DNA of 64,000 bases, from positions 8,979 to 72,978 of the forward strand of contig LBYH01000002.1 in assembly GCA_000996035.1 (NCBI GenBank), written 5' to 3'. The notes below the pieces were generated by a model. That model did not search any database, had not been told where the DNA came from, and saw only the letters and a list, made by a program, of their open reading frames with translations. This DNA is from Parcubacteria group bacterium GW2011_GWA2_40_143 (GTDB lineage: Bacteria > Patescibacteriota > Minisyncoccia > UBA9983). Shown piece after piece: positions 74-57,496 of this stretch (its first letter is position 1; each line of letters starts with the position of its first letter). The translations under genes were made by a program, and so were the position numbers.

Positions 74-133
74 ACCCATAACATTTATATTATAAGCTTG
101 GCACGATTAAACCGCAACATCACTTGTGTGTAT

Positions 134-2851: not shown

Positions 2852-2924
2852 TGCTTAAATAATAGCAAATACCTTGCCTTTTTAAAAGCAAGGTATTTTG
2901 TCTGCCAATATAACCGCTTACGGA

Positions 2925-3125: not shown

Positions 3126-3127
3126 AA

Positions 3128-3577: not shown

Positions 3578-3584
3578 GTTAATT

Positions 3585-4034: not shown

Positions 4035-4078
4035 TGATGGTATCCTATCATAAAAATCTCTAAATGCAAGCTTTTTGG

Positions 4079-5311: not shown

Positions 5312-5339
5312 GGTTTAATCAAAATTAACTTGCCAAAAA

Positions 5340-6965: not shown

Positions 6966-6980
6966 TATAAATATATTTTA

Positions 6981-7379
6981 TCATCCAATTTCTTTTATTA
7001 CTATCCTTGCCACGGTGGCGGCAAGATTAATCGGCAAAACCCCCACGAAAAAATCAAAAACGCTGCCAACACCAAGTACCATGAAACTGGCGGTTAATTT
7101 CTTCGGCCCGAAATACAAAAACAACACCAAGCCGAAACACAAGTTAATAACCACGCTTAAATAAGGGATAATGGCAAACAAATCAAAAACAGCCGCCATC
7201 GCGAGCACCGGCCAATACTTGGCAAACCTCGCGCCAAGAGACAATATCGCTTTTGGATTCTTGGCCACAACCGCCGAAGTTACATCTTTAGCCAGCTTGG
7301 CGGCGTTTCTCGCCTGATTGAGCCGACTCGCCTTGCTTTCTTCTTCCGGCGAAATTCCGTTGTTAAAATTATTTTCCAT
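6981..7379 (-). CDS. Small polytopic membrane protein (T4SS-cluster component)
   Basis: 132 aa; at least three hydrophobic segments after a charged N-terminus. Immediately downstream of VirB4. Confidence 0.4.
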   Translation of the reverse strand: MENNFNNGISPEEESKASRLNQARNAAKLAKDVTSAVVAKNPKAILSLGARFAKYWPVLAMAAVFDLFAIIPYLSVVINLCFGLVLFLYFGPKKLTASFMVLGVGSVFDFFVGVLPINLAATVARIVIKEIG

Positions 7380-7389
7380 ATTTTAAAAA

Positions 7390-9210: not shown

Positions 9211-9225
9211 GGTAACTTGATGAAC

Positions 9226-9867
9226 TTATCTATTCGCCACTCCTTTGCCACTTTCCCCCGGATTATACAGCTCGTAGAAAAGCTCTATAAGCTCTTCCGT
9301 ATTAAGTGGAGCCACTCTTATACCGGCGCGCGCCAGACCTTGTTGCACCACATCCGATCTCTGCTGAAGCTGGATTTTATACTGCTCAAACTTCTCGCCC
9401 ATGGAACCGCTTTTACCGTCACCGGCAATGCCTCCAAACAATTTGCCAAAGCTTCCCTTTTTGACTTCTATGGATACGTTGGTGTATGGCACGGTAATAT
9501 AGAAGGTCTTAGACATCACATTGGTAACTTGCACAAAATTTTTTACGAATTCAGCGTACTCTTTGGTCTGAATCCGCAAAAGCTCATTATCATGACTTTT
9601 TTCCGCTTCGCTTAAAATAGCCAAGTAGGGACCTATATCCAATTTTCTGGATTGAATAAAAAATTGCACCGGAAAATCAAGGGAGTTTAAAAAGTTTTGA
9701 TACTGAAGCACGATGGCGCTCTGTTCTTCTTCAGATTTAAGGGCGAAGTTCAAAGTGGAAGCCATAAGAATCATTCTTAAAGAATTATCTTTAAGAATGA
9801 TTACGCCGTCTCTTATTTCCTTTATCGGCACGAACTCTTGCGTTGATTTTGATGATACCGGTGACAT
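9226..9867 (-). CDS. VirB4 N-terminal domain fragment (Gram-positive TcpF/PrgJ/Orf16-type N-terminus)
   Basis: 213 aa; 'FVPIKEIRDGVIILKDNSLRMILMASTLNFALKSEEEQSAIVLQYQNFLNSLDFPVQFFIQSRKLDI' matches the conserved N-terminal region of Firmicutes-type VirB4. Ends in TAA at 9226-9228, in frame with the next ORF. Confidence 0.65.
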   Translation of the reverse strand: MSPVSSKSTQEFVPIKEIRDGVIILKDNSLRMILMASTLNFALKSEEEQSAIVLQYQNFLNSLDFPVQFFIQSRKLDIGPYLAILSEAEKSHDNELLRIQTKEYAEFVKNFVQVTNVMSKTFYITVPYTNVSIEVKKGSFGKLFGGIAGDGKSGSMGEKFEQYKIQLQQRSDVVQQGLARAGIRVAPLNTEELIELFYELYNPGESGKGVANR

Positions 9868-9891
9868 TTTTTTATTTTACCATACTTTCAA

Positions 9892-10311
9892 TTATTTTAT
9901 CTTACTTTTTATATCCAAACTCCAAGAAAGATCTTTGAGTCGGCTCTTGGTGAGCTTGGGAATAAATTCCTCTTGCATTACTCCTTCTCTTTGCCGTCTC
10001 GCGTCGCTAACGGTAAAACTGGCGGTTTTCATTTTTTCCTTTTTCCAGAGATATATTTTCGGCGAAGCGTAATATTTAAGACCATGCTCCACAATTTTTA
10101 TAAATGGCTGATTGTTTACTTTGTAAAATGCCAACGCTATCACGAAACCGCCTATCGGCAGACCCAAAAAAACCACCACCGGAAATGGCAAAACCACGTA
10201 AAGAAGGAAAATAAGACCCGCGCCGCCGGCAAGGTAAACAAACTGTTTCCATGTAAGCGGCCCAAAAAGCTTACTCTCAATTTCTATAAATTGTGGAACT
10301 TGAAAACGCAT
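9892..10311 (-). CDS. PrgI/TcpE (VirB3-like) small membrane protein
   Basis: 139 aa; two adjacent TM helices 'FVYLAGGAGLIFLLYVVLPFPVVVFLGLPIGGFVIALAF'; sits immediately upstream of VirB4 as in Gram-positive T4SS. Confidence 0.5.
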   Translation of the reverse strand: MRFQVPQFIEIESKLFGPLTWKQFVYLAGGAGLIFLLYVVLPFPVVVFLGLPIGGFVIALAFYKVNNQPFIKIVEHGLKYYASPKIYLWKKEKMKTASFTVSDARRQREGVMQEEFIPKLTKSRLKDLSWSLDIKSKIK

Positions 10312-10315
10312 TTGT

Positions 10316-10960
10316 TTAATTTATCGGTTCACGATAAGGGTCTGCGTCGCCGTAACCCTTGCCATTTTCTAAGGGCGAGGAGGTCTTCGGTTCTACTTCT
10401 TCAGGCTTTTTATATTCCGCCACCTCCTTCGGCGCCCTGTATACGTCATCTTTGAGCTTGGCCTCAAACGGATTGGTAACGCCTTTAAAAATGTCCGGCA
10501 TTTTTTCTTCCTCATTTTTTACAGGCAAAGACGGCGCGGGAACATCTTCTTTTTCTATTTCTTTAAGTATATCACTTTTTGCGTCAGAAACAGCGGCAAC
10601 GATCCCCTCGCCATCGTCAAACGCGTCTTTATCGTCTCTTAAATTATGCACTCGTCGCAAAGAGTCTCTCACCTTCTTAAATATCCGCTCATTCACATCC
10701 GAGGCTATTTCTCCGGCTTTGGTTTTGTCAATTTCCAGCAGCTTGACTAGATTGGAGACAAACTCGCTTGACATGGTAACACCAAGCATTACCATGCCAG
10801 TTTCATTTCCAAGATTGCCGATTTTATCTATATTTAAATTATATTTTTTCCCAATCTTAACAATTTCTTCATCGGTTTCTATACTAAAAATAGCCGATCT
10901 TAAATCCTCCGGCAGATTGGAGTAAATATTTTCTATTTCTTGATCCGAATATTCTTTCAT
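10316..10960 (-). CDS. Acidic cytoplasmic hypothetical protein
   Basis: 214 aa, no TM segments, D/E-rich; adjacent genes are only 5 nt apart (10311/10316). Confidence 0.4.
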   Translation of the reverse strand: MKEYSDQEIENIYSNLPEDLRSAIFSIETDEEIVKIGKKYNLNIDKIGNLGNETGMVMLGVTMSSEFVSNLVKLLEIDKTKAGEIASDVNERIFKKVRDSLRRVHNLRDDKDAFDDGEGIVAAVSDAKSDILKEIEKEDVPAPSLPVKNEEEKMPDIFKGVTNPFEAKLKDDVYRAPKEVAEYKKPEEVEPKTSSPLENGKGYGDADPYREPIN

Positions 10961-10986
10961 GTTTTTTAAAAAATTATTTTTAAATA

Positions 10987-13077
10987 TTATAGCTTCTTGG
11001 AACCTCCGCCGCCACCACTTGAACCTATAGCGCCCTGAAGACCTTCTGTTTCTTTTCTTCTTTCTTCTTTATCTTCCAACTCCTTTTTCCTTGTTTCTTC
11101 TTTTTCAATTTGTTTTATATATCCTTCTCTTATCTTCTTTTCCGCATTTTTCTTTAATCTTGCTTGCTTAGTATCGTCAATGGCCTTTATGGCCGACGCT
11201 TCTCCGTCTGTGTCTCCATCATTTATTGCCTTAGACAGTTTGTAATTTTGAGTAACAAGTTTTGTTTCAAGCCCTTCCAAAACTTCTTCATTTTTTTCTA
11301 TTTCTTCTTTTAATTTATCTTTGGCAATACTTGCGTTAGACTGCACGGCTTTTAGATTCTTCAGCTCTTCTTTTTCTGATTCTATCCTTTTCTTCTTTTC
11401 TGTTTCAGCTGATCTTTTCGTTTCAATTCCTTCAATCGTTTTAGAAGCCGATTTTGTGAACACTTGCCCCTTCATCGCCGTTAAACCGGCATCACTGTAT
11501 GAACCAAATTTTTCCTTTCTTGATTTTTCTTCAGCCTTAAGTTGCTTCTCCCTCCATGTTGAAGCGCGAGCAAAGCCGCTGTTTACAAGAGGGATGGCTC
11601 CTATTATTTTGCCGAATTTGTTTTGTTTGCCGTCTTTATCCAATTGAGATCTGAGTAGACCCTCTCCGGCTAATCCAGCGGTTCTTTTTGCACCATATGT
11701 ACCCCATCTCATCGCCGCTCTGTCGCCAAATTTATTTCTCGCGAAATCGCCGGCTTGCTTGCCATACTTCATCGCCATGTCCGATCCGATCGCTCCCATC
11801 TGCTTGGCGACATATAAAGCCATTATCATAAGAAACGCAACCACCATAAAATGGAAAATCACTATGAGAGTTTCATCCACGTTAAATGGAAGAAATGAGC
11901 TGGCCGCGCTTTTTTCTGCGGCTATGATGGTTCCTTTCAAAAAATTGCTGTTTATAATCTCTGTTACTATTAAAAGCATAAAGAGATACGCGGGAGCGAA
12001 AAAAGATTGCCTTATTAAGGTATCCCACCATTTGCCGGCATGAGCCGCCAGCGCTTTTGGCATAATTGGCAAGATAAAACCAAGCGGCGCGAAAATCATA
12101 AGTATCCAAAGCACAACTACTCTTATAATAAAGAGGGCCGCGCTGGCAAAAAAGATAAAACCGGCAATAAAGTTAAGAGTGGCTGAGAGGATATACAAAA
12201 CTGACATCTGCATAAAAGTAACCGGCAATATTTCTTTTCCTTCCTCTACAGCTTCCATCAATTTCTCTTGATTGCTTTTTTTGGTTTCATCTTCCTCCGG
12301 CGCGCCAAACCACGCATTTTTAAATTCGCCAGCAAACAAAGACTTGCCTGTGTATTTCACAGATTCCAATAAATTTGTCCAACTTGACCATGTCCGATAG
12401 CTACCGGCTGTAACATCTGCCACACCCGTTCCAACAATTACAGCTGAGGAAATAACCTTAGCAACCCCGTCTTTTTTTATATCAACAATCTGAACAGCGC
12501 CGGGAATTTGCGGAAATTTAGCTTGCCCTTGCGTGTCTATTTTGTTGTAAAAACTCCATGCCAATACATGCGAAGCGTCAATAATCATTCTGGCAAACAA
12601 AAGGCTAAAATTTATAAGCACTGCCACCACTATAACTTTTACAAGCAATTCCTTGCCTCCGTAGGTGCCTATCTGCAAAATAGTGGCAATGGCGATATAT
12701 AAAATAATGAAGATAAAAAACAGATTGGCAAAATCTCTCATAAGCTTCCAGCCTTCCTCTATAATTCCTGCTTCAAATATGCTTCCTGAAATGCTAAAAA
12801 GCATCGCTCCGTCAAAAATCTCTCCGCCGGCCCACGTTACGAAAGTTGAAAGATAATGTATAAACTGAGTTATATAGTATATACCTGCTGTTATGCATCC
12901 CCAGACGGCAGTTACTCCACAGACACCTTCAATGTGCATAACAGTTTCATCGCTTGCCGTCTCCTCCGCGTAAGCAACGCCAATAACGCCAATTTGCGAT
13001 ATAGCCGGCGCGGAAGTCTGAAAAATGGTTACCGCCAGTATCAGACACAATATTATTTTTTTTATTTTACTTATCAT
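10987..13077 (-). CDS. VirB6/TrbL-like polytopic membrane protein with a C-terminal charged coiled-coil tail
   Basis: 696 aa; at least seven hydrophobic helices followed by a K/E-rich coiled-coil C-terminus and a poly-Gly end. Position and topology are consistent with VirB6-family channel proteins. Confidence 0.4.
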   Translation of the reverse strand: MISKIKKIILCLILAVTIFQTSAPAISQIGVIGVAYAEETASDETVMHIEGVCGVTAVWGCITAGIYYITQFIHYLSTFVTWAGGEIFDGAMLFSISGSIFEAGIIEEGWKLMRDFANLFFIFIILYIAIATILQIGTYGGKELLVKVIVVAVLINFSLLFARMIIDASHVLAWSFYNKIDTQGQAKFPQIPGAVQIVDIKKDGVAKVISSAVIVGTGVADVTAGSYRTWSSWTNLLESVKYTGKSLFAGEFKNAWFGAPEEDETKKSNQEKLMEAVEEGKEILPVTFMQMSVLYILSATLNFIAGFIFFASAALFIIRVVVLWILMIFAPLGFILPIMPKALAAHAGKWWDTLIRQSFFAPAYLFMLLIVTEIINSNFLKGTIIAAEKSAASSFLPFNVDETLIVIFHFMVVAFLMIMALYVAKQMGAIGSDMAMKYGKQAGDFARNKFGDRAAMRWGTYGAKRTAGLAGEGLLRSQLDKDGKQNKFGKIIGAIPLVNSGFARASTWREKQLKAEEKSRKEKFGSYSDAGLTAMKGQVFTKSASKTIEGIETKRSAETEKKKRIESEKEELKNLKAVQSNASIAKDKLKEEIEKNEEVLEGLETKLVTQNYKLSKAINDGDTDGEASAIKAIDDTKQARLKKNAEKKIREGYIKQIEKEETRKKELEDKEERRKETEGLQGAIGSSGGGGGSKKL

Positions 13078-13097
13078 TAAGAAACAAAATTAAAAAC

Positions 13098-15704
13098 TTA
13101 AGCATCCGCTAAAATATCTTCGCAATCTTTCGCGTCAACATCTTCGTTGTCTGTATATTTATTCAACACGCAAGTGTATTGCTCAACTTGGTCTTTTGTC
13201 TTATTCTCTTGATTACTCGTGTCTTCGTTTACTTCTTTCGCCTTTTTCTCCCCCTTGGTGGTGTATTCTTTTTTACCAAGAGCGCCTGCTGATATTGTAA
13301 CACTGTCGGAGAATTTTTCCCCATCGGCGTCCTGACAAATAAACTTATAAGACACTTCGTATGAGCTATCGCCTTCTTCTCCTTCAAACTCTATTGTTTC
13401 TTTACCTTTGTAATTGCTCGCGTCAACTTCCAAATAATACCCCTCGCCGACATATTGCCAATTATCTGCGATACCATCTCCATCCGCATCCACTACCTCA
13501 TCATCTTCATCAAGCCTTGTCAGACTGCCGCTTAAGCCTTCCATATAATCTTTTTCTTCCGCGTACAAATAACAGCTTCCCGAAACATTTGAAGCGCTCC
13601 ATCTTAGTTTGGAACTTTTACCGAAAGCCACCTCCGAAGGCGAAGTCGTTATATCCACGGCGGTAACGACTTCAGCGTCATCGTAAGAAGAAATCGCCAC
13701 AGACACGGTATCATAATCTCCGTCTTCGCTATAGCAGGTAATGGAATATTCTCTTTCTTCGCTTTCATATTCTCCGTCTTCATCTTTAATGCCAAAATCT
13801 TTTGTTCGGTAAGAACCGGATGTGCTCTCGCTAAAATCCATATCCCAATCGTTATCACCGGAACCTTCTTCTTTTTCGCAATAATCGGCGCCGGTAGCGT
13901 ACCAATACACGTAAGTGTCTTCTCCATTCTCCACCGCCGTTTCTTTTGCCCAGATATTTACGGCAAATTCTTCCGATCCGCTAATTTCTCCGCAAATATC
14001 GCCTTTTTCTTGATTGGCATTGTAATTCTCATTACTGAAGCAATAATTCTTTTTAATCTCGTTTATTTTCTTTTTTGATTTGGCTTTAAGCACATCATTG
14101 TCAAAATTTTCAAGCACTTCCAGCGCCCACTCGGATATGCCTATGTAATCTTGGCCCCAGTCAGAATCAAAATACTCCCCACCAGACTCAAAATCGCCAA
14201 GCTTGCTTTCCGCTTTGCTAATTTTTTCGTCAATATCTTTTATTTCGCAGGTTATTGTATCATCATCACTATTGTCGTCATCATCACACGATGTCACAGT
14301 TTCAACCTCACCCAAATCAATATACTTAAAAACTTCTATATCATTCAAATCGGTTATATCGCCACTGTCTTCGTCAAGCAAGTCGGCGCAATATTCATTA
14401 TCATTCAAAATATCCCCTCTATTATCTTTGCCATATTGGATGCATTTAAGCTTGTTGGCGATTTCTCCAAGTTTTTCCATTCTTTCCTTCAAGGTACTCT
14501 TCATCTCCTCAAGCGAGTTCTTAAACTTCTTTTCCCACTTGCTCATATTGCCTATCTTTTCAGATAAGTTAAGTTTCGTTGCGTTTGCGTCTTGACTGTC
14601 CTCAAGCGCGCCATATTGATCCCTGTTGCCGGCTCTGTCCGGACTGCTCGTGTAGGCACTCAAGCCTTCTCCGCCAGATCCGCCGGTAACAATCCAGCTT
14701 ACTAATTGGGTGGCCAGCGCGCCGATTATTTCGTCTATTTCATCGGCTACTTGTAATCTACCTTCATCACCGCCGAGGGTTTTATCCAATTTCCCTTGCA
14801 CTATGGCGCCGGGAGTGGTGGTTTTGTACTCAGCACATGTGCTGATGGGAGCAGTGGAGGGAGAAGAAACTGGATCAAAAGCATTATAATTGTTGCCAAG
14901 ACTTGTTGGCTCGCTATACTTCACGCACTGCCTTATACCCAAGAAACCTCTGCCGAGCTGCGCGCCAAATTTTTCTTGCTCTCGGCCTTTTTGCGCTTCT
15001 TTAATGGCGTCGTTGTAGGCCATACCAAATGCTCCGGCTTTATTATTTTTCGGGTTTGATGTAAAAAGCCACATCCCCCAGCCGCCATTTCTAAAATCAC
15101 TACCATATTCTCTTACTATGTTTTCCTGATTTATATTTATATCTATGTCAATCCAATCACTAAAACTCCTACCAAGTCCTTCTTCAAATTTATCTACAAC
15201 ATCTTCAAAAGTACATCTATATTTAGTTTTGCTTGTGCCAGGTAAAAATAGATCTAAACTAAAACTAAACTTTCCAAATGGATCGCATAACCACTCAAGA
15301 TTCAGGTCACTTATAACCGCCCCGCTCAATTGATTGCCAAATTCTCCAAAGAACTGCTCCGGGTTCTCAAGAAACATCGGGCTCCCTTCAAAGCCGCTGT
15401 TTATCCAATCCACTATCTGATCGGTAAATGTGTCTATGAGTACGTTGATAGCCGTCCACGCAAAACCATCAAGGACGTACTCTTTGATTTCAAGTGCCCC
15501 TGCGGAAATAGCTGTAGCAGCACCAGTAACAGCGCTCTCAACAGACGCCCATGCCCCTTGGCTCACGTCAGAATTAACATTTACGGAGTAGGCCTCCGCT
15601 TTTGTCGCATTAAAAGAAAAAGTTGCCGCCAAAAAAACAGCAAACACACTCATTATCCATCTTGTTATTTTTTTATTTTTTTTCCAAAAAAACATTTTAT
15701 TCAA
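13098..15704 (-). CDS. Large secreted acidic surface protein (candidate adhesin/tip protein of the T4SS-like cluster)
   Basis: 868 aa; signal anchor 'WIMSVFAVFLAATFSFNA', highly D/E-rich, scattered Cys. Overlaps the upstream gene by 8 nt. Confidence 0.45.
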   Translation of the reverse strand: MNKMFFWKKNKKITRWIMSVFAVFLAATFSFNATKAEAYSVNVNSDVSQGAWASVESAVTGAATAISAGALEIKEYVLDGFAWTAINVLIDTFTDQIVDWINSGFEGSPMFLENPEQFFGEFGNQLSGAVISDLNLEWLCDPFGKFSFSLDLFLPGTSKTKYRCTFEDVVDKFEEGLGRSFSDWIDIDININQENIVREYGSDFRNGGWGMWLFTSNPKNNKAGAFGMAYNDAIKEAQKGREQEKFGAQLGRGFLGIRQCVKYSEPTSLGNNYNAFDPVSSPSTAPISTCAEYKTTTPGAIVQGKLDKTLGGDEGRLQVADEIDEIIGALATQLVSWIVTGGSGGEGLSAYTSSPDRAGNRDQYGALEDSQDANATKLNLSEKIGNMSKWEKKFKNSLEEMKSTLKERMEKLGEIANKLKCIQYGKDNRGDILNDNEYCADLLDEDSGDITDLNDIEVFKYIDLGEVETVTSCDDDDNSDDDTITCEIKDIDEKISKAESKLGDFESGGEYFDSDWGQDYIGISEWALEVLENFDNDVLKAKSKKKINEIKKNYCFSNENYNANQEKGDICGEISGSEEFAVNIWAKETAVENGEDTYVYWYATGADYCEKEEGSGDNDWDMDFSESTSGSYRTKDFGIKDEDGEYESEEREYSITCYSEDGDYDTVSVAISSYDDAEVVTAVDITTSPSEVAFGKSSKLRWSASNVSGSCYLYAEEKDYMEGLSGSLTRLDEDDEVVDADGDGIADNWQYVGEGYYLEVDASNYKGKETIEFEGEEGDSSYEVSYKFICQDADGEKFSDSVTISAGALGKKEYTTKGEKKAKEVNEDTSNQENKTKDQVEQYTCVLNKYTDNEDVDAKDCEDILADA

Positions 15705-16686
15705 AAACTTCTATGTCATAATCGTCAAAAAATTCCTGCATACTTAGACCGGCGTAATAAACTCTCTTTGCCTGATTTTTGTAAATATTGAAACCCGCCA
15801 AAGCCGATATGGGGTCGCTTGCAATCTTAGTCATATCATTTACTGCCGAACCGACATTGTTAATTCCATTCAAAATATCTAAATGTTGAGCCGACAAGCT
15901 TTTTGGAATATTTTTAATTTCCGAAATCTGCGTCGCGATTGTTTCATAAAAATTCGCCGAATCTTTCAAAAGGGAAATTTCTTCATCAATGTTTTCATCA
16001 TTTTTCTTTTTCCCAAGCATGCGTTCAAATATTTGACCTTCGTTTTCTTGAGTATTTTTTTTCTCGTCAAACATTGTTTTTTTTATTTCATCGGCGTAGG
16101 CTTTTATAGCCGCGCTCGTTTCGCTTTTGGTGAAATTTATATCAGAAGAATCGTAAGCATCTTTAATATTTTCTCCGGCCGATTCAATGTCGCCCATAAA
16201 CATATTTACCAACTCATTTTTGTCGTCTTCCGTAAGCGTTCCCTTTGCCGTTTTGAGCGCCAAATAATTAAGCATCATTTTTCTGGCTGATATTTGGGTT
16301 TTAGAATCGCTTATCCATTCATTCACGTCCGCGCCATTTGTTTTGTTTACAGGTAAATTACCGGAAAGCTCATCATCGGGGCCGGCTACGGTGGGATTGC
16401 GGCCGGCGGCAATTTCTTCTCCATCGCTCATGCCATCGCCATCGGTATCAGGATTTTTAGGATCTGTTTTCCAAAGCGCTTCTTCCCAATCAGCCAAACC
16501 GTCTCCGTCCGCGTCTTTGACCAATATTTCTTTGGCGGTCATGTTCACCGCCAAAAGAGAGTCGTCTTTCTCTGCCTCGTATGAAAGACTGGTGTTTTTG
16601 ATTGATTTATAGTAAAACCACCCTCCAAAAAGAAGGATAATAATTATCAAGAAAAGAACTATTTTTTTATTTGGTAAGATAGCCAA
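15697..16686 (-). CDS. Membrane-anchored protein with DxDxDG (thrombospondin type-3-like) calcium-binding repeats
   Basis: 329 aa; N-terminal TM 'IVLFLIIIILLFGGWFYY'; 'DADGDGLADWEE...DPKNPDTDGDGMSDGEE' repeats. First gene of the minus-strand cluster. Confidence 0.45.
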   Translation of the reverse strand: MAILPNKKIVLFLIIIILLFGGWFYYKSIKNTSLSYEAEKDDSLLAVNMTAKEILVKDADGDGLADWEEALWKTDPKNPDTDGDGMSDGEEIAAGRNPTVAGPDDELSGNLPVNKTNGADVNEWISDSKTQISARKMMLNYLALKTAKGTLTEDDKNELVNMFMGDIESAGENIKDAYDSSDINFTKSETSAAIKAYADEIKKTMFDEKKNTQENEGQIFERMLGKKKNDENIDEEISLLKDSANFYETIATQISEIKNIPKSLSAQHLDILNGINNVGSAVNDMTKIASDPISALAGFNIYKNQAKRVYYAGLSMQEFFDDYDIEVFE

Positions 16687-16767
16687 AGATTACGGCATCC
16701 GCCGTAATTAAATTATACCACTTACTTAAAATATTTTATACACGCAATAAGCCTTTTTGTGGATAAC

Positions 16768-17535
16768 TTATTTGCTTATCAAACATTTCCAATTCTCAAT
16801 ACTCAGATCTTCCGCTCTCGCTTTTTCGCTTACGCCGCAACCGGTCAGAAAATCGGCATCAACTCCAAGATTACCTTTCAACATTTTTCTTTTGCTGGCA
16901 AAACCTTTTTTAACTATTTCAAAAAACTTTTCTTCAGAAATGTCTCTAAAAAATTCCTTGGAAATGTTTGAGATTTTTAAAACCGCCGAATCCACCTTGG
17001 GCTTGGGAGAAAAATTGCCGGCCGGCACCCTTCTCGCTATCTCCGGCCGGCCATAAACCTTAACGCTGATTGAAAGAAGACTCTCTTTTGTTCCCACAAT
17101 CCTCTCCGCCACTTCTTTTTGCACCATTAAAACTATCATTGAAGGCTGTTCGCTTTCCGGTTTATCGCTTAAAAAATTTCTTAAAAACTGAGAAGTGATG
17201 TAATACGGAATGTTAGCCACTACCTTATATCCCCCACCCACCATCAAGGCGTCGCCTTGATGGTGTAAAATATCGTCAAAAAGGAGTTCCAGTTTCCCGT
17301 TTTTTATTTCTGACGCAAATTTTTCTTTTAAAAACTCCGCAAATCTCTCATCTTTCTCCATCGCTATCACTTTTTTAGCCTTATTTAGCAAAGCTTCAGT
17401 AAGAATGCCCTTACCCGGTCCCACTTCCAAAATCACGTCGTTTCCATTTATTTCAGCGGCATTTACAATATCCTCCACCACCTTGCGTGAAGTTAAAAAA
17501 TTCTGCCCCAAACTTTTTTTAGCTTTTATCATCAT
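16768..17535 (-). CDS. rsmA: 16S rRNA (adenine1518/1519-N6)-dimethyltransferase RsmA/KsgA (start assumed at internal Met)
   Basis: 'KSLGQNFL' hallmark and SAM motif 'ILEVGPGKGILTEAL'. The track ORF extends to 17592 through the REP palindrome; the internal Met 'MMIKAKKSLGQNFL' is the more plausible start. Confidence 0.85.
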   Translation of the reverse strand: MMIKAKKSLGQNFLTSRKVVEDIVNAAEINGNDVILEVGPGKGILTEALLNKAKKVIAMEKDERFAEFLKEKFASEIKNGKLELLFDDILHHQGDALMVGGGYKVVANIPYYITSQFLRNFLSDKPESEQPSMIVLMVQKEVAERIVGTKESLLSISVKVYGRPEIARRVPAGNFSPKPKVDSAVLKISNISKEFFRDISEEKFFEIVKKGFASKRKMLKGNLGVDADFLTGCGVSEKARAEDLSIENWKCLISK

Positions 17536-17553
17536 CAGCAATTGCACCAAGGT

Positions 17554-17580
17554 TTGCACCAAGGTTAAACCTTGGTGCAA
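17554..17580. repeat. REP-like perfect palindrome TTGCACCAAGGTT-A-AACCTTGGTGCAA (REP copy 1; partial direct copy at 17543-17553)
   Basis: 27-bp self-complementary sequence overlapping the RAYT 3' end; the same sequence recurs at 18235-18290 and 19325-19350. Confidence 0.8.
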
Positions 17581-18230
17581 TAACTTAGCCAAAAATCAAG
17601 ATATTTTCTAAGCTCCAAAGTATCATCAAAATATTCAGGCAGAACGTTTTTATCTATAATCAATCCTTCTTTTCTTTCTAACCCTAAATAATCAATAAAA
17701 CTGGAGTATTTATATTGTTTTAAAAAATCATCGACTTTATCTTTATTAGAAATACCATTTTCTTTCCAGTGAGGATCGACCATTTTTACCGGATTTAGAT
17801 GAATATAAGCTAAAAGATACTTGAGATGATTGTCGTCATTAGCATGAATAGACTTGAAGCTACTTTCAAAAAGCGAGCCTGTTCTCTCATATTTTTTATT
17901 AAAAAACATAGTATAACCAGTCATCATTTTTTGCATAAACTTACTTACTCCACCCTCCCTAATTTCTTGAACTAGTACATGAAAATGATTGGGCATAAGA
18001 CAATAAGCCGATATCTTCACGATATCATCTTCTTTTTTCAAATTTAAAACACCCTCAAGAGTACTATCGCGCAAGTTGCTTATATGGACAGTGTCTTTAT
18101 TGTTGCAGATATACAAAAGAGAAATAAATCTTTCGTAGTCATCCTTTTTCAAAAAAATTTTTCTCTTATCCGTACCTCTTCCGTATAAGTGATAATTTTC
18201 TCCTATTGAAAAATCAATATTTCTAGCCAT
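17565..18230 (-). CDS. IS200/IS605-like Y1 HUH transposase, REP-associated tyrosine transposase (RAYT)-like
   Basis: 221 aa; HUH motif 'YCLMPNHFHVLVQE'; C-terminal 'AYIHLNPVKMVDP' resembling the RAYT catalytic-Tyr region; flanked on both sides by REP-like palindromes. Confidence 0.7.
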   Translation of the reverse strand: MARNIDFSIGENYHLYGRGTDKRKIFLKKDDYERFISLLYICNNKDTVHISNLRDSTLEGVLNLKKEDDIVKISAYCLMPNHFHVLVQEIREGGVSKFMQKMMTGYTMFFNKKYERTGSLFESSFKSIHANDDNHLKYLLAYIHLNPVKMVDPHWKENGISNKDKVDDFLKQYKYSSFIDYLGLERKEGLIIDKNVLPEYFDDTLELRKYLDFWLSYCTKV

Positions 18231-18234
18231 TTTT

Positions 18235-18290
18235 TTGCACCAAGGTTAAACCTTGATATAATTGGTTAAACCTTGCATTTTGGTGCTGAT
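18235..18290. repeat. REP-like palindrome, degenerate copy with an internal 20-bp partial duplication
   Basis: TTGCACCAAGGTTAAACCTT[gatataattggttaaacctt]GCATTTTGGTGC, immediately upstream of the RAYT start codon. Confidence 0.6.
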
Positions 18291-19264
18291 AAGCCTTTGA
18301 AAAACTCAACGACCTCAACAAAATCAGCTTCGTTGTACTTACAAGAGTTATCTAGGAAGCATCTGTCATCTTTTGATATTGGAAATTTATTACTTGATAT
18401 TAAATTAGATATTTTAATATCAGCCCCATTCCAATATCTTTCGCAAGAAAGATCTAGATTTTCCTTATCTACACCTAAAGCTGAGAGCGCTTCATCTGTG
18501 TTTCTAAAGCAAAAGATATTTCCATTATTTATAGTTTCTTTTTGAGCCGGCTCAAAACAAATTTTGCCGAAAGCATATTCCTCAAAACCCCTTGGTAAAG
18601 AGTTTTTGTTCATAAAATATAAATATGATCCAGTGGCTTTTGTACTATTTTCATTTATAAACTTAAAACTAGACAGGATATTGTTATATACCGCCTGCTG
18701 CTCTTTTTCTTTTGGATTATTAACCCCAGGATAAACAGAATAAAATATTTTAAATATTTTTACCCCTCTATTTATATAGATCTCCTGACTAACACTGTCT
18801 CCACCGCGCTGTGTTATATAAAAAGCATCATGATCGTTAAACGATTTTTCTTCTCCATGAGATACATCTCTTAATGTAAATGGTAAATCTTTTTCTCCGC
18901 TTTTATCAAATTCTTTTTTATAAAATTCCGAGTACCAATCTTTCGGACTTAATTTATTCAAATTATCATAAATGTATACACTTAAACGGTACGGGATACC
19001 TTCGTAGGGAATGCCATCTTCTTGATCCGTTATGCGTACATGATTGTTATCCCCAACAACAAGCTTTAAAAAATCTGGATATCTAATTTCAAATAAAAGT
19101 CTGTTGTCTTTATATGTTTGCCATCCTATATTTTCAATAACATGAATGTCACGCCCAGCTGATGTGGTGCTTTTTTCACTATTAATTTTGTCTCTCTCCT
19201 CTAAAAAATAAATAAAAAGAACACCAACAATAATCGCCACTAAAAATAAAATTATTTTTTTCAT
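18266..19264 (-). CDS. Secreted hypothetical protein with a Cys-rich C-terminus, located between REP copies (possible REPtron cargo)
   Basis: Start assumed at 'MKKIILFLVAIIVGVLFIYFL' (signal anchor); the track ORF extends to 19294. No recognisable domain. Confidence 0.45.
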   Translation of the reverse strand: MKKIILFLVAIIVGVLFIYFLEERDKINSEKSTTSAGRDIHVIENIGWQTYKDNRLLFEIRYPDFLKLVVGDNNHVRITDQEDGIPYEGIPYRLSVYIYDNLNKLSPKDWYSEFYKKEFDKSGEKDLPFTLRDVSHGEEKSFNDHDAFYITQRGGDSVSQEIYINRGVKIFKIFYSVYPGVNNPKEKEQQAVYNNILSSFKFINENSTKATGSYLYFMNKNSLPRGFEEYAFGKICFEPAQKETINNGNIFCFRNTDEALSALGVDKENLDLSCERYWNGADIKISNLISSNKFPISKDDRCFLDNSCKYNEADFVEVVEFFKGLSAPKCKV

Positions 19265-19324
19265 ATTTTTACATTTTTTACAATAAAAAATCACCTAATC
19301 GTATTTTATCATATTTTTGATTTC

Positions 19325-19350
19325 TGCACCAAGGTTAAACCTTGGTGCAA
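19325..19350. repeat. REP-like palindrome TGCACCAAGGTT-A-AACCTTGGTGCA (REP copy 3)
   Basis: Perfect 25-26-bp palindrome identical to REP copy 1, in the 7-nt-wide gap before pcrA. Confidence 0.8.
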
Positions 19351-19356
19351 ATTTTC

Positions 19357-21288
19357 TCAATCGTATCTTATCACGTCTTCCACTTCACGGTTAAATTCTT
19401 CCATCTTGAATAAATATTCAGGAATATCGGATAAAAATCTGGAAGGCATATTGGCTTGCCTGCTGCCAAAGATCATTCTCATCACACTGAAAGTAAGAAA
19501 CAACTTTTTCCTGGCTCTTGTTAAAGCCACATAGAAAAGTCTTCTCTCCTCCTCGTCTTTATCCACAGAATTCCCCATGCCAGAATGCGGAAACAATCCA
19601 TCTTCCAAACCGGTGATGAAAACGTAAGCAAATTCAAGACCTTTGGCGGCGTGCGCCGTCATGAGTCTGGCGCTATTTTCCTTTTTCTCCAAAGAATCCT
19701 GCGCCGCCATTAAAGCGAAGTCTTCCACCATTTTCTCCACTCCTTCAGATAAAGGCAGCCCGTCATAACGAGCGGCGATGCTGGCCAACTCTTTAACGTT
19801 TTCCAATCTCTCCGCGTCAGCAGGGTCGCCGCTCTCCAGAAACTTCTGCATGCCGCTTTCTCTTAAAACAAATTTTATAAAAGACGACGGTCTCTCTTTC
19901 TCAGATGATTCTTTGATTTTATCAAGCAATGCGTTAAATTCGGCAAATTTGGCTTCCGTCGCCACAGGAAGCTTCTTGCCGGCAAACTTATTCAACACCG
20001 ACACTTTACCCAAACCTCTTGGCGGCACATTTATAATTCTTTTTATACTCACCGCGTCTTCTCTGTTTAGAGCCGCTTTGATATAAGAGAAGATATCTTT
20101 AATCTCTTTGCGGTCATAAAACTGAGTGCCGAGCATCTGATATGGCACGTCATGCTTAAGACAAGCTTCTTCCAGAACCCGTGACTGGAAGTTGGCTCTA
20201 AAAAGCACCGCTATTTCCGAAGGCTCCACGCCTTCGCGGATAAGCTCTTTGATTTTATGAGCCACGAATTCCGCCTCCTCTTGTTCTCCCATGGCCTCAA
20301 ACAAGGATATTTCCGCGCCTTTGATATTTTTAGTAAATAAACCTTTCGGCTTTCTTACTTTGTTTTTTTCTATTATTTTGGCAGCAGCCTCAAGAATATT
20401 CTGCGTACTGCGATAATTCTCTTCAAGCGACACCGACACAAGATCGGGATAATCATTTTCAAAATTTATAATATTTCTGAAGTCGGCTCCGCGAAAAGCG
20501 TAAATGCATTGATCCATATCGCCCACGGCGCAAATATTTTTGCTTTTAGCGGCGAGAATTTTGGAAAACTCGTACTGGCTTTTATTAGTATCCTGATACT
20601 CGTCTATGATGATATACTTCCAGAGATTTTGATAATACTCTCTCACGGCGGCATCTTGCTTTAACAAAAAAACAGTTTTAGACACCAAGTCGTCAAAGTC
20701 TAAAGCTTTATGAGCAACTAAATACTCTTCATACTTTCTCCAAATCTTAGCAAGCATGGTGGGGAAAAAGTCGCCGGCAAAATCCGTTTCGTAAGTATCC
20801 ACGCTCATAAGCTCGCCTTTGTTTTTGGAAATTATTGATTGCATTTTGGACGGCTGGAACTGTTTGGGATCAATGTTTAGCTCTTTTATGGCTTCTTTGA
20901 TAAGCCCAAGGCTCTCTTCTTTATCAAGAATGGAAAATCCTTTGGTCACCCCGACTGCCTTGCCGCTATTCTTTAACATATACACTCCGAGTGAGTGGAA
21001 AGTGCTTATGAAGGGAGTTTTGTTTTTTTGTTCTGTCGGATTGTCAGCAATTTGTTTTAATAAGGATAACGTTCTTTCTTTCATCTCTCCCGCCGCTTTG
21101 TTTGTAAAAGTTATCGCTAAAATATTTTCCGGAGCAACACCGGAGCTCACAAGATAGGCTACGCGATGGGTGATACTCTTTGTCTTACCGCTGCCGGCGC
21201 CGGCAAGCACCAAGAGCGGCCCATCTTTGTGCAAAACCACTTTCTTCTGAGCTTCATTAAGCCCGTCAAGTAAAAAATTCTCAATCAT
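19357..21288 (-). CDS. pcrA: ATP-dependent DNA helicase PcrA/UvrD (SF1)
   Basis: 'LLDGLNEAQKKVV...GPLLVLAGAGSGKTKSITHRVAYLV', 'ILAITFTNKAAGEMKER', 'IIIDEYQDTN'. Start assumed at 'MIENFLLDGLN' (track ORF starts 18 nt upstream). Confidence 0.85.
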   Translation of the reverse strand: MIENFLLDGLNEAQKKVVLHKDGPLLVLAGAGSGKTKSITHRVAYLVSSGVAPENILAITFTNKAAGEMKERTLSLLKQIADNPTEQKNKTPFISTFHSLGVYMLKNSGKAVGVTKGFSILDKEESLGLIKEAIKELNIDPKQFQPSKMQSIISKNKGELMSVDTYETDFAGDFFPTMLAKIWRKYEEYLVAHKALDFDDLVSKTVFLLKQDAAVREYYQNLWKYIIIDEYQDTNKSQYEFSKILAAKSKNICAVGDMDQCIYAFRGADFRNIINFENDYPDLVSVSLEENYRSTQNILEAAAKIIEKNKVRKPKGLFTKNIKGAEISLFEAMGEQEEAEFVAHKIKELIREGVEPSEIAVLFRANFQSRVLEEACLKHDVPYQMLGTQFYDRKEIKDIFSYIKAALNREDAVSIKRIINVPPRGLGKVSVLNKFAGKKLPVATEAKFAEFNALLDKIKESSEKERPSSFIKFVLRESGMQKFLESGDPADAERLENVKELASIAARYDGLPLSEGVEKMVEDFALMAAQDSLEKKENSARLMTAHAAKGLEFAYVFITGLEDGLFPHSGMGNSVDKDEEERRLFYVALTRARKKLFLTFSVMRMIFGSRQANMPSRFLSDIPEYLFKMEEFNREVEDVIRYD

Positions 21289-21542
21289 AAAAAAATAATA
21301 GCACACAAAACCGCCTGTGGATAAAAAATTTTACAAACATTGACATTTTATCAAAAATACATATCATTAGTATAAAGGTTGTGGTACTGATTTTTCTAGA
21401 AAATCCTTATTTATAGCCACAGAATCACAGAGACATCTGAAAAACCCTTTAATTTAGGCTTATTACTACTCACAAACAAAGTTCCACTGAGCCAAGCAGT
21501 AAAAGATTAGGCCGGTGGACCCAAATATTCGCTTTTAATGTT

Positions 21543-39285: not shown

Positions 39286-40932
39286 ATGTCATGGCTTTCA
39301 AAAGTTTTCAAGAAAAAAGAAGTACCATTGTCAAGGTTGAACCTTGACAATGGAGTCAATATTGAGCAGTCCAAGCCACTGGTGCTGGTTATTATAGACG
39401 GCTATGGCGTGCCTCAAGACGGATCGGAATCACCATGGCGAAACGCCGCCAAGCCTAATTTTGAAGAAATAGAGAAGCATTATCCATTTACCACACTGCA
39501 AGCCTCGGGCATAGCGGTAGGCTTGCCATGGGGAGAGGCCGGCAATAGCGAAGTGGGGCATCTCACTATTGGTGCCGGCAAGGTTATTTATAATTATCTG
39601 CCAAAAATATCAACGACTATCAAAGACGGTTCTTTCTATGAAAATAAGGCTTTCATGAAAGCGGTTTCTCAAACAAAGGCCGGCGACGGCGCTTTGCATT
39701 TTCTCGGTCTTTTTTCCAGCGGCACTGTTCATGCTTATTTTGAACACCTCTACGCGCTTCTTGAGCTGGCCAAGCGAAATGGTGTAGATAATAAAACATA
39801 TCTTCATCTTTTCACTGACGGCAAAGACGCCTATGAACGCGAAGGAGCAGACTTCTACGACAAGCTGGAAGATGATCTTAAAAAAGATTTTCCAAATATT
39901 AAAATCGCCTCCATAATGGGCCGCAGCTTTGCCATGAATAGAAATGAAGAATGGGGGAAAACAGAAAAAGCCTATAATCTTCTTATTAAAGGCGAAGGAG
40001 AAAATTTTTCTTCGGTAAAAAGTTATATTGAAAACAATTATGCCGAAGGAATCACCGACAGCGCCATAGCTCCAGCCGCCGTTATAGACAGAGAAGGAAG
40101 AATTAAAAGCGGCGATAGCGCGATCTTCTTTAACTTCAGAGAAGACAGCGCTCGCCAACTCACGGAAGCTTTTATTAAGCCGGATTTTGATAAGTTTAAT
40201 AGAGAAAAGCTGAATGATCTCACCTTTGTTACTATGACGGAATATGATAAAAACCTTCCAACACTTGCCGCTTTTAAATCCGCCGAAGTGGCTAACCCGC
40301 TGGCAAAACTGGTATCTGAAAGCGGTTTATCCCAACTTCACATCGCTGAAACCGAGAAATACGCGCATATAACCTTTTTCTTAAACGGTGGCAGGGAAAC
40401 GCCTTTTAAGGGCGAAGACAGGCTTCTTGTGCCATCACCTAATATACACCCGTACAGTCAAGCGCCAGCCATGTCTTCTTCTGAAATAGCAAAAAGGATA
40501 ATAAGCAATCTTGGTAATTATGATTTTATTGCCGCAAACTTCGCCAACGCGGATATGGTGGGACACACCGGCGACTTTGATGCCACCACTAAAGCCATAG
40601 AAACCATAGATTCTCGGATAGGTGAGCTTAAAAAAGCGGTTTTGGACATTGGCGGAACACTTATTGTAACGGCCGATCATGGCAACGCGGAAGAAAAATT
40701 ATACAAATCCACGGGTAACAAAAAATCTGAGCACTCTTTAAATCCGGTGCCTTTTTACGTAATTGGCAATGATTTTAAAAAAGAAACAGCTAAAACTCCG
40801 GAAGAAATATCGGCAAATTATAGAAAAACAAAAGGCGCTCTCATTGATGTGGCTCCAACAGTATTAAGCTTGCTTAAAATACAAACTCCCGCCGAGATGA
40901 CTGGCAGGAGTTTGTTGGAGAAATTGTTTTAA
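39286..40932 (+). CDS. gpmI: 2,3-bisphosphoglycerate-independent phosphoglycerate mutase (the N-terminal ~25 aa contain a REP-like palindrome; the true start may be at a downstream GTG)
   Basis: 'LVLVIIDGYGV', 'GNSEVGHLTIGAG', 'ADMVGHTGDFDATTKAIETID', 'TADHGNAE'. Confidence 0.9.
   Translation: MSWLSKVFKKKEVPLSRLNLDNGVNIEQSKPLVLVIIDGYGVPQDGSESPWRNAAKPNFEEIEKHYPFTTLQASGIAVGLPWGEAGNSEVGHLTIGAGKVIYNYLPKISTTIKDGSFYENKAFMKAVSQTKAGDGALHFLGLFSSGTVHAYFEHLYALLELAKRNGVDNKTYLHLFTDGKDAYEREGADFYDKLEDDLKKDFPNIKIASIMGRSFAMNRNEEWGKTEKAYNLLIKGEGENFSSVKSYIENNYAEGITDSAIAPAAVIDREGRIKSGDSAIFFNFREDSARQLTEAFIKPDFDKFNREKLNDLTFVTMTEYDKNLPTLAAFKSAEVANPLAKLVSESGLSQLHIAETEKYAHITFFLNGGRETPFKGEDRLLVPSPNIHPYSQAPAMSSSEIAKRIISNLGNYDFIAANFANADMVGHTGDFDATTKAIETIDSRIGELKKAVLDIGGTLIVTADHGNAEEKLYKSTGNKKSEHSLNPVPFYVIGNDFKKETAKTPEEISANYRKTKGALIDVAPTVLSLLKIQTPAEMTGRSLLEKLF
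39325..39353. repeat. REP-like 29-bp perfect palindrome CCATTGTCAAGGTT-G-AACCTTGACAATGG inside the gpmI 5' region
   Basis: 14-bp arms around a single centre base; the same sequence occurs in tsaE at 57084-57110. The core CAAGGTT-N-AACCTTG is shared with the RAYT-flanking REPs. Confidence 0.75.
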
Positions 40933-57013: not shown

Positions 57014-57496
57014 ATGAAAAAAAGGATAATCACAAAGAATCTTGAGGAGTTTATCAGCCTCGTTCAAATTATCGCCAAGAACTCATTGTCAAGGTTGAAC
57101 CTTGACAATGGAGGTGGCGCGACCGTGCTGGCGCTTTATGGCGAATTGGGCGCGGGTAAAACCACTTTCGCGCGCGCGTTTGCCGAAACATTGGGAGTAA
57201 AAGAAAAAATTAAAAGTCCGACTTTTATAATTTTCAGAAAATCAAAAATAGAAAATAAGGAATGGAGCGAGAAAGTTTTTGAAAATTTTTATCATTTTGA
57301 TGTTTACAGAATTCATAATGAAAAAGAAATTTTAAATCTCGGCTGGGAAGAAATAATTTCTAATCCACGCAATATTGTTTTGGTGGAGTGGGCGGATAAA
57401 ATAGAAAGTATCTTGCCTAAAAACCATATTGAGGTAGTCCTCAAACATAAAGAAGAGGGAAAAAGAGAAGTGGAGGTGATGATGGCAAAGGTGTGA
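57014..57496 (+). CDS. tsaE: tRNA threonylcarbamoyladenosine biosynthesis protein TsaE, carrying an in-frame 9-codon palindrome insertion
   Basis: 'VLALYGELGAGKTTFARAFAETLGV', 'SPTFIIF', 'HFDVYR', 'VLVEWADK'. The palindrome-encoded SLSRLNLDN precedes the P-loop. Confidence 0.8.
   Translation: MKKRIITKNLEEFISLVQIIAKNSLSRLNLDNGGGATVLALYGELGAGKTTFARAFAETLGVKEKIKSPTFIIFRKSKIENKEWSEKVFENFYHFDVYRIHNEKEILNLGWEEIISNPRNIVLVEWADKIESILPKNHIEVVLKHKEEGKREVEVMMAKV
57084..57110. repeat. REP-like 27-bp perfect palindrome CATTGTCAAGGTT-G-AACCTTGACAATG inside tsaE
   Basis: Identical to the gpmI copy (39325-39353); in the coding frame it reads LSRLNLDNG. Confidence 0.75.

Follow-up and report, generated by a model that had tools for sequence, protein, structure and literature searches.

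A Y1 tyrosine transposase gene bracketed by hairpin-forming palindromes in a Parcubacteria genome is probably a REPtron-like unit

Knowledge of repetitive extragenic palindromes (REPs) and their REP-associated tyrosine transposases (RAYTs) comes almost entirely from Proteobacteria and a few further phyla, where the repeats are species-specific and carry a GTAG foot. The Patescibacteria, a huge radiation of bacteria with genomes of about 1 Mb, are assumed to have few repeats. In a 64,000-nucleotide stretch of the genome of Parcubacteria group bacterium GW2011_GWA2_40_143 (contig LBYH01000002.1, positions 8,979 to 72,978; hereafter, the window), a gene for a Y1 HUH tyrosine nuclease/transposase (17565..18230, minus strand, 221 amino acids; hereafter, Y1) is bracketed by palindromes. 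Is this an enzyme with its own repeat, a mobile insertion sequence (IS), or a gene that happens to lie among hairpins of another kind? We consider it probable that the locus is a REPtron-like unit, in which the gene for a Y1 HUH nuclease of RAYT/TnpAREP class 2, present once and inherited for the most part vertically, lies between copies of its cognate repeat. The repeat is a perfect palindrome of odd length, with a conserved core next to the apex, Y-CAAGGTT-N-AACCTTG-R, and outer arms that are variable and complementary.

All genes of the locus lie on the minus strand, and the order of transcription is uvrD, pal3, an orphan gene, pal2, Y1, pal1 with an additional half-site, and rsmA. The pal1 element (17554..17580) is a perfect 27-bp palindrome, TTGCACCAAGGTT-A-AACCTTGGTGCAA, that encodes the last four codons of Y1 (C-T-K-V) and its stop; its apex is the TAA stop codon itself (17565-17567). 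It is abutted by an extra direct half-site, TTGCACCAAGGTT (17542..17554, plus strand), which lies 6 nt upstream of the rsmA ATG and was not listed in the original prediction. The predicted single-stranded DNA (ssDNA) fold of this region (17540-17585; -15.9 kcal/mol, z -5.3) pairs the extra half-site with the right arm of pal1. The pal2 element (18235..18289), between the stop of the orphan gene and the start of Y1, is a degenerate composite that begins at 18235/18236 and reads TGCACCAAGGTTAAACCTTG-atataatt-GGTTAAACCTTG-catt-TTGGTGC out to 18286, i.e., a left arm with the apex, a duplicated GGTTAAACCTTG, and a distal remnant of the right arm, TTGGTGC. A relative of the window, L145 (loci used for comparison carry L numbers), has the same composite structure. 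The pal3 element (19325..19349) lies upstream of the orphan gene, 8 nt past the uvrD stop, and is a perfect 25-bp palindrome with arms of 12 nt, TGCACCAAGGTT-A-AACCTTGGTGCA; its L145 orthologue reads CCGCACCAAGGTT-A-AACCTTGGTGCGG and is accompanied by an extra half-site. Thus, the original prediction of identical 27-bp palindromes around a Y1 gene was right about the bracketed locus, the perfect 27 bp of pal1, and the degeneracy of pal2, and wrong about the length of pal3. The hairpin feet at the locus read caatTTGCACC and ttcTGCACC.

These palindromes are not expected by chance: 100 shuffled sequences gave an expectation of 0.00, and 8 perfect palindromes with arms of 11 nt or more and a loop of 0-1 nt were counted over the full window, as opposed to 0 in 30 first-order Markov simulations. 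An Rfam search of 16500-19800 returned only sub-threshold chance hairpin matches (mir-8186, 26.6 bits versus a cutoff of 80); thus, the palindrome region is not a known RNA family. Arrangements of a half and a full palindrome, in either order, recur at L130, L145, L150, and L158 and in the window (17542-17580). Candidate origins for such arrays are nested insertion at the hairpin apex, duplication of an arm by slippage, and the remnant of a deleted neighbor.

The protein itself was assigned by profile, motifs, and predicted fold. As proposed from the sequence, it is a HUH Y1 transposase: it matches the Pfam model Y1_Tnp (PF01797) over residues 40-144 (E 3.9e-10, 40.3 bits versus a cutoff of 23) and carries YCLMPNHFHVLV and AYIHLNPV, with the HUH motif NHFH at residues 81-84 and the catalytic tyrosine motif YIHLNP at residues 142-147. 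A word index contained more than 2,193 homologues, nearly all of them about 220 amino acids long, and those with a named source came from Patescibacteria or unclassified bacteria; a profile search identified 1,146 clusters at 50% identity (E <=1e-30). In an alignment of 35 homologues (A1; lengths 218-230 amino acids; consensus motifs PNHFH, LFQG/LFES, YIHLNP, and YSS), N81, H84, and Y142-I-H-L-N-P147 are invariant together with 39 other positions (47 invariant columns overall), and H82 and F83 are each kept in 90% or more of the sequences. The AlphaFold2 model (pLDDT 89), which has a helical C-terminal extension of about 70 residues, is predicted to be closest in fold to 4ER8, the E. coli TnpAREP bound to a REP hairpin (E 3.9e-6), followed by TnpA of IS608 and of ISDra2; 4ER8, 2A6O, 2XM3, and 2F4F match its overall fold at a probability of 1.00. 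A PDB search with the single sequence gave no match, and a Pfam scan detected no helix-turn-helix (HTH)-like C-terminal domain. A search of viral contigs with the Y1 profile found no relatives, which suggests that Y1 is not phage-borne. With respect to the catalytic tyrosine, Y1 belongs to class 2, as YIHLNP is invariant in the 35 homologues; class 2 TnpAY1 proteins have Y-x-x-x-N-P, and IS200 transposases have Y-x-x-x-Q (PMC6006769).

Do other Y1 genes have palindromes at their ends? Such flanking is conserved across phyla. We scanned one genome per species with the pattern YRYCAAGGTTNAACCTTGRYR and found the core YCAAGGTT-N-AACCTTGR at no fewer than 116 genome loci. Of the 116 loci listed, 17 have a gene for a Y1 homologue (aligned stretch 25-64% identical), and in 10 of these 17 a palindrome lies within about 70 nt of the Y1 start or stop, either on both sides (L047, L049, L059, L077, and L108) or on one (L017, L025, L081, L092, and L103); Y1 identity in these ten ranges from 42 to 53%. 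The other 99 have no Y1 in the stretch examined (at most 8 kb). The converse, unbiased sample, in which Y1 homologues were picked for long contigs regardless of palindromes, comprised nine Y1 genes at seven loci (two each in L125 and L165, and one each in L155, L156, L158, L160, and L162), and in all nine of them palindromes abut the start and/or overlap the stop. Homologues with palindromes at their ends span 39-75% identity to Y1.

The palindromes differ from one Y1 gene to the next. They read ATCAAGGTT-A-AACCTTGAT in L155, CAAGGT-TCG-ACCTTG in L156 and L160, GAGGTT-A-AACCTC in L158, and CAAGG-CGAGA-CCTTG in L162, and L165 has a degenerate AAGGTT-N-AACCTT. L125 and L165 encode two Y1 paralogues each, and the palindromes of the paralogues are not the same: in L125 the first is flanked by TGTCAAGGTT-N-AACCTTGACA and the second by TGCCGAGGCT-A-AGCCTCGGCA, and both types have additional copies nearby. 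Paralogues within one genome are only 36-55% identical, and the most divergent Y1 paralogue (39% identity) has the most divergent palindrome. Divergence of the protein is thus matched by divergence of the repeat, which is how cognate pairs behave in RAYT/REP systems.

Most copies of the core stand alone. According to record titles, about 98 of the 116 core loci listed belong to Patescibacteria (Saccharibacteria, many Parcubacteria lineages, and Gottesmanbacteria), 7 to unclassified "bacterium" metagenome-assembled genomes (MAGs), and 11 to other bacteria, 7 of which are MAGs of Bathymodiolus/Thiodubiliella-type or other thiotrophic Gammaproteobacteria. The counts per genome are lower bounds. 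From copy to copy, the outer arms vary and stay self-complementary, and the central base is unconstrained; in 75% of cases (25% expected) the arms are longer than the 10 nt set by the search pattern, and in 39% they measure 13 nt or more. The palindrome is not unique to the Y1 locus, which the original prediction had named as a point to check: apart from the 15-nt core at the loci above, contigs of related aquifer metagenomes from the Joint Genome Institute (JGI) contain the exact 23-mer GCACCAAGGTTNAACCTTGGTGC at 11 distinct sites, only one of which overlaps the window and only one of which has a Y1 gene nearby.

In the Bathymodiolus heckerae thiotrophic gill symbiont (L062), a Y1 homologue of about 37% identity (5034-5716) is split into two open reading frames (ORFs) by a TGTCAAGGTT-G-AACCTTGACA palindrome, and the downstream ORF starts with MSRFNLD. 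Further copies of the palindrome are found elsewhere in this genome and in Thiodubiliella. The palindrome/Y1 system thus also occurs outside the candidate phyla radiation (CPR).

Several of these observations would also suit hairpins that serve the host. Most of the 11 metagenome sites read AAAA-palindrome-TTTT, pal3 scored as terminator-like, each of the three spacers in the co-directional array uvrD-orphan-Y1-rsmA has one copy, and perfect dyad symmetry is what a dimeric protein that binds double-stranded DNA would require. The palindromes might therefore be bidirectional terminators, mRNA stabilizers, or operators, with Y1 merely located in hairpin-rich spacers. We regard this as very unlikely. 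No fewer than 27 copies lie deep inside long ORFs, all in one frame, where a terminator would be harmful, and two unrelated genes of the window share an identical sequence of 27-29 nt. The palindromes are found systematically next to the ends of Y1 genes in different phyla, and they change along with the paralogue. Finally, outer arms differ within one genome yet remain self-complementary, which argues for a hairpin rather than a fixed protein half-site. Secondary use of some copies as terminators would be compatible with a REPtron-like unit, as it is for classical REPs. An origin of the core as a restriction site or a Shine-Dalgarno sequence was set aside, as the core is found inside ORFs and at 3' ends, and a second family of palindromes in the window lacks the CCWWGG site.

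Members of this second family account for the related palindromes that had been predicted elsewhere in the window. One, CCATTGTCAAGGTT-G-AACCTTGACAATGG (39325..39353), lies within the annotated 5' end of gpmI, at codons 14-23; GpmI homology starts after it, at residue 29, so this copy may be in the 5' untranslated region or in an N-terminal extension. The other, CATTGTCAAGGTT-G-AACCTTGACAATG (57084..57110), is in frame inside tsaE; its peptide, LSRLNLDNG, follows the N-terminal helix and precedes the P-loop strand. Both contain the 15-nt core CAAGGTT-N-AACCTTG (0.03 expected), and the identical 27-29 nt are read in the same frame in the two genes, as PLSRLNLDNG in gpmI and SLSRLNLDNG in tsaE. 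In total, the 64 kb contain five core palindromes, and a further 20 kb or so (10 kb off each end) adds one, a second-family copy just outside the window, between the convergent genes relA and efp.

Intragenic copies also occur in other genomes. In at least 27 long ORFs, counting those of 250 or more codons whose palindrome is 40 or more codons away from both ends, the core is read in one frame and encodes xSR[LF]NLDx; apparent orthologues from different genomes sometimes share its position. Roughly one fifth of palindrome copies are intragenic, often in frame. DNA identity between unrelated genes suggests that they are insertions; alignments to solved TsaE and KsgA structures showed no clean nine-codon gap at the intragenic palindromes. 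In Zambryskibacteria, L052 (position 360) and L065 (position 5320) have apparent orthologous intragenic copies with the same left flank, ggatga, and a different central base, G versus C; flipping of the whole palindrome would give this difference.

Is Y1 then a mobile element in its own right? The window has one Y1 gene, and its context, uvrD-orphan-Y1-rsmA, is identical in 23 of the 23 contigs examined; in a more distant relative, L155, Y1 is 74% identical and again directly upstream of rsmA. Both observations resemble the behavior of a domesticated gene. On the other hand, Y1 shows a presence/absence polymorphism. L145, a metagenome contig 95% identical to the window, aligns to positions 22521-18237 and then jumps to 17554-16775, and what it lacks is exactly 693 bp, i.e., pal1 and the Y1 gene. 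The polymorphism is bounded by two 13-nt direct repeats, one being the half-site at 17542..17554 and the other the first 13 nt of pal2, and the L145 junction falls inside the repeat, 11 nt of which are shared with L145. The empty site reads aat-CGCACCAAGGTT followed by AAACCTTGATAT, with the junction written as ...GCACCAAGGTT / AAACCTTGATAT; in the filled site of the window, TTGCACCAAGGTT is followed by the additional segment, which runs from TGCACCAAGGTTAAACCTTGGTGCAA through Y1 to TTTGCACCAAGGTT, and then by AAACCTTGATAT. Three processes would fit this junction: cleavage of the Y1 type at both ends, 3' of GGTT; cleavage at the foot of the hairpin; and plain recombination between the repeats. 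The overall picture of copying and inheritance is mixed, with the single context and the L155 synteny on one side and the absence in L145, the different placement in L162, and the paralogue pairs of L125 and L165 on the other.

An autonomous IS200-type element would account for part of this. Y1 would move together with its terminal hairpins by peel-and-paste and insert 3' of ...CAAGGTT, a site that the apex of an existing palindrome could offer, and solo palindromes would be targets or footprints. The 693 bp missing from L145 correspond to a filled site of the form H, then (full palindrome...Y1...H), then h', and this agrees with the rule for IS200/IS605 elements, whose two cleavages occur after one and the same short sequence. 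In L162, moreover, Y1 is on the opposite side of rsmA and on the opposite strand, some genomes have two paralogues within 5-8 kb, and half-plus-full arrangements recur. Even so, we find this unlikely. Recombination or slippage between the two 13-nt direct repeats gives the same junction, and since Y1 of L155 has the same location next to rsmA, on its upstream side, loss in L145 is the simpler reading. The single context in all contigs examined is not that of a mobile element, nor are paralogues of 36-55% identity with different palindromes, where active ISs have near-identical copies. The tyrosine motif is Y...NP, as in the RAYT class, whereas IS200 has Y...Q; one perfect palindrome forms both ends, in place of distinct imperfect left-end and right-end hairpins; and the many solo and intragenic copies are too uniform for footprints.

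The REPtron-like reading also has to be weighed against domestication of a different kind, in which Y1 serves the host in ssDNA processing, e.g., at replication forks or in recombination, and the palindromes are fixed sites that spread by mutation or conversion and not by Y1. Purifying selection on the protein is strong: between the window and L155, Y1 is 74% identical, more than the N terminus of RsmA (about 60%, estimated by eye), and 47 alignment columns are invariant. The core has persisted across CPR phyla, and roles other than transposition have been suggested for subclasses without REPs (Quentin et al. 2018). We nevertheless think it quite unlikely, because identical copies in unrelated genes and genome-specific concerted variants need a copying process. 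The latter are seen at the orthologues of pal3 and pal2 in L145, which have CGCACC..GGTGCG where the window copies have TGCACC..GGTGCA, and T..G intermediates of the outer arms occur at L141 and L150; a change in both arms that is common to the L145 copies points to concerted, hairpin-preserving evolution. Nor is Y1 indispensable. It is missing from the close relative L145, it is split by its own palindrome in L062, and in L124 (GCA_000994355.2), an assembly of the same strain, a 57-bp in-frame deletion relative to window positions 17861-17916 removes the invariant residues 105-123; this deletion could reflect decay of Y1 at the population level or be an assembly variant.

Some findings weigh against a REPtron-like unit, above all a classical one. 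The original prediction of a REPtron-like unit is supported, and both checks that could have refuted it came out in its favor, but a classical RAYT/REP is not supported: the Y1 profile, the predicted 4ER8-like fold, and the core at the flanks of homologues make the unit REPtron-like, whereas the match to the NCBIfam RAYT equivalog model (NF047646, REP_Tyr_transpos) reached 45.4 bits and stayed under the cutoff of 80, and the GT[AG]G tetranucleotide of classical REPs was found at the hairpin foot in only 5 of 326 half-sites. The sequence profile of the Y1 family had no confident match in the PDB, where E. coli TnpAREP was not found and the best match was ISDra2 TnpA (E 0.26). The prediction had also suggested checking whether copies sit at gene 3' ends, as in classical bacterial interspersed mosaic elements (BIMEs), and both second-family copies in the window proved to be inside ORFs. 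As for dispersal within the source genome, the exact palindrome occurs within the 64-kb window only at the Y1 locus, and copy number appears modest, with five cores per 64 kb and a few per genome, not hundreds, among the matches listed. The gene is not strictly immobile, as it is absent in the 95%-identical L145 and relocated in L162. Lastly, TnpAY1 subclass 2.1, to which the motifs of Y1 point, has been reported to lack REP-like sequences (PMC6006769).

How would such a unit work? The palindrome would fold into a hairpin when the DNA is single-stranded, e.g., on the lagging-strand template. Y1 would recognize the distal stem and loop rather than the foot, as suggested by the apex-proximal position of the conserved part of the repeat and by the lack of a GTAG foot. 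Like TnpAREP and IS608 TnpA, it presumably has the folded single strand as its substrate, which it would cleave and rejoin via a 5'-phosphotyrosine intermediate, using the HUH metal site and Tyr142. In this way it may copy or move short hairpins to new sites and give rise to the solo copies between genes and to those within genes whose frame remains open. As for the Y1 gene, it would normally be immobile but could be lost by way of the direct half-site repeats on its two sides. Tentatively, one can go further and envisage an ancient REP-like system across much of the CPR, in which a Y1 protein of the subclass 2.1 type reads the apex-proximal core instead of a GTAG foot and spreads hairpins of 21-29 bp into the intergenic and coding DNA of minimal genomes; the half-plus-full arrays and the SR[LF]NLD peptide, found in dozens of unrelated and often essential proteins, would be its by-products, and cleavage or insertion at the apex may occur. 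To our knowledge, cleavage or insertion at the apex has not been described for RAYTs.

How far does this unit resemble known ones? Canonical REPs and BIMEs number more than 100 copies per genome and are extragenic, mostly at gene 3' ends and often in inverted pairs. As far as we know, the GT[AG]G guide tetranucleotide is essential in all characterized TnpAREP/REP pairs. REPtrons, i.e., a TnpAREP/RAYT gene with its REPs or BIMEs, are known from E. coli, Pseudomonas, and Stenotrophomonas (Nunvar 2010, Ton-Hoang 2012, Messing 2012, Corneloup 2021). Like them, the unit described here has a Y1 HUH protein with the class 2 Y...NP motif, a predicted fold closest to 4ER8, a short palindromic repeat of its own at its flanks, solo copies that are dispersed and mostly intergenic, a repeat family for each paralogue, and inheritance that is probably mostly vertical. 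Perfect-palindrome REPs are also known in one RAYT group (PMC8266576). Unlike REPtrons, it has no GT[AG]G foot, and what is conserved is the apex-proximal stem and loop; its core is common to several phyla, in contrast to species-specific repeats; its protein of about 220 residues has a helical C-terminal extension of about 70 residues and scores under the NCBIfam RAYT cutoff; copy number is apparently modest; and no organization into REPINs, the inverted pairs of REPs, was noticed.

Within class 2, the motif set of Y1 matches TnpAY1 subclass 2.1, as judged by comparison of motifs with the table in PMC6006769: both have NH[YF]H, FQ for WQ, Y[IV]HLNP, and SS in the proximal tail, a length of about 220-240 amino acids (published, about 238), and a low copy number. 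Subclass 2.1 (Quentin et al. 2018) equals group 1 of Bertels and most of the TIRYT/TIRtrons, which are named for their terminal inverted repeats (TIRs) (PMC6006769; PMC3733652). Its members are reported to have either no REP-like sequences or TIRs with the motif GGGGWSAS (PMC6006769; PMC3733652), and the TIRs of some TIRtrons are self-complementary and make up small repeat families (PMC3733652). Y1 differs from both in its perfect palindromes and in having no HTH-like C-terminal domain detectable by Pfam; the GGGGWSAS motif is absent near the gene. The survey that defined the subclass (Quentin et al. 2018) does not mention CPR genomes.

With the IS200/IS605 family (IS608 and ISDra2), the locus shares the Y1 HUH fold, hairpins at both ends of the gene, and polymorphism junctions that fit cleavage 3' of the same short sequence at both ends. 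It differs in the Y...NP motif in place of Y...Q, in the absence of tnpB (we found no tnpB-like ORF at the locus) and of multiple near-identical copies, and in that its ends are identical perfect palindromes that also occur alone at many sites. The intragenic copies, in turn, resemble the Rickettsia palindromic elements (RPEs) and intragenic REPs (Ogata 2000; Di Nocera 2013) in being in-frame palindromes within genes, including those for replication and repair, that encode a recurrent peptide. They are much shorter than RPE-1 (21-29 bp, or 7-10 codons) and, unlike RPEs, have a single dominant frame (xSR[LF]NLDx) and an association with a Y1 gene. The intragenic RPE-4 and RPE-6 of R. conorii have been counted as CGTC repeats that are not tied to transposase genes (PMC3733652).

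In full-text literature that links RAYTs, REPs, or tyrosine transposases with Patescibacteria or the CPR, we found no description of such repeats; the one paper that contains both "REP-associated tyrosine transposase" and "candidate phyla radiation" has only a hit to KEGG K07491 in an archaeon. The kind of system is already known, and what is new is its home in the CPR, a protein of a subclass reported to be without repeats, hairpins conserved at the apex and lacking GTAG, a core common to several phyla, and frequent in-frame copies that encode one peptide. If the same logic of a domesticated Y1 nuclease and a cognate hairpin operates across Patescibacteria, it widens REP/RAYT biology, and Y1 with its palindrome is a concrete candidate enzyme-substrate pair, with a different mode of recognition, for a poorly understood Y1 subclass. 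There are practical consequences as well: the 15-nt core is a simple search handle, the recurrent peptide of 7-10 residues in CPR proteins is relevant to annotators and structural modelers, the palindromes may explain many contigs of about 1 kb with little beyond a Y1 homologue, and they are an annotation pitfall that creates spurious N-terminal extensions.

Such an extension is found in the gene directly downstream of Y1, rsmA (16768..17535, minus strand), which encodes the 16S rRNA dimethyladenosine transferase (PF00398, E 3.5e-53). A TTG-initiated ORF of 274 codons (start at 17592) runs through pal1, and in an alignment to solved KsgA the RsmA homology begins at MMIKAKKSLGQNFL / KKSLGQNFL, i.e., after the palindrome; thus, the N-terminal extension of the 274-residue version is spurious, as the original prediction had it from the overlap of the first palindrome with the Y1 stop, and the true start is the ATG at 17535/17532. 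Farther into rsmA, a perfect 27-bp palindrome, CACCATCAAGGCG-T-CGCCTTGATGGTG (17239..17265), is in frame (HHQGDALMV) and has a related stem and a different, CG-rich apex. At the same relative position, rsmA of L162 has a core-type palindrome, CCAATGTCAAGGTT-G-AACCTTGACATTGG (11227-11255). Possible explanations are two independent hits on a single loop and an old copy whose evolution kept it palindromic.

At the other end of the array, uvrD (21306..19357, minus strand) is the first gene. Between pal3 and pal2 lies the orphan gene (18266..19264, minus strand), which encodes 332 amino acids from its ATG; the protein has a hydrophobic N-terminal segment and 6 cysteines in the last 100 or so residues, consistent with the predicted Cys-rich product between the second and third palindromes. 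It has no match in Pfam or NCBIfam, and a search of 5.8 billion proteins found its homologues in a single cluster, the one that includes the L145 relative. Its GC content is 31.5%, versus about 40%, and the gene may be a recent acquisition that sits between the palindromes; it is a possible member of the palindrome unit.

The window contains further features of note. The Y1 locus adjoins a block resembling type IV secretion or conjugation genes (window positions 1-15700), with a TraG-like ATPase, a TraC-like protein, PrgI, a type IV secretion system pilin, and a coupling protein, and this block is syntenic between distant Parcubacteria (the window and L162). The gene for the delta subunit of DNA polymerase III, holA (60926-61813), holds two perfect in-frame palindromes without the CAAGG core, GAAATAAGCTCA-A-TGAGCTTATTTC (60966-60990) and CCCCTGTTTTGGAGACT-T-AGTCTCCAAAACAGGGG (61414-61448). 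Finally, a hicB antitoxin gene in the window is missing 106 nt at 60107/60108 in comparison with L167 and L168 (7122-7227), two other assemblies of the same population, and its reading frame is disrupted in the window.

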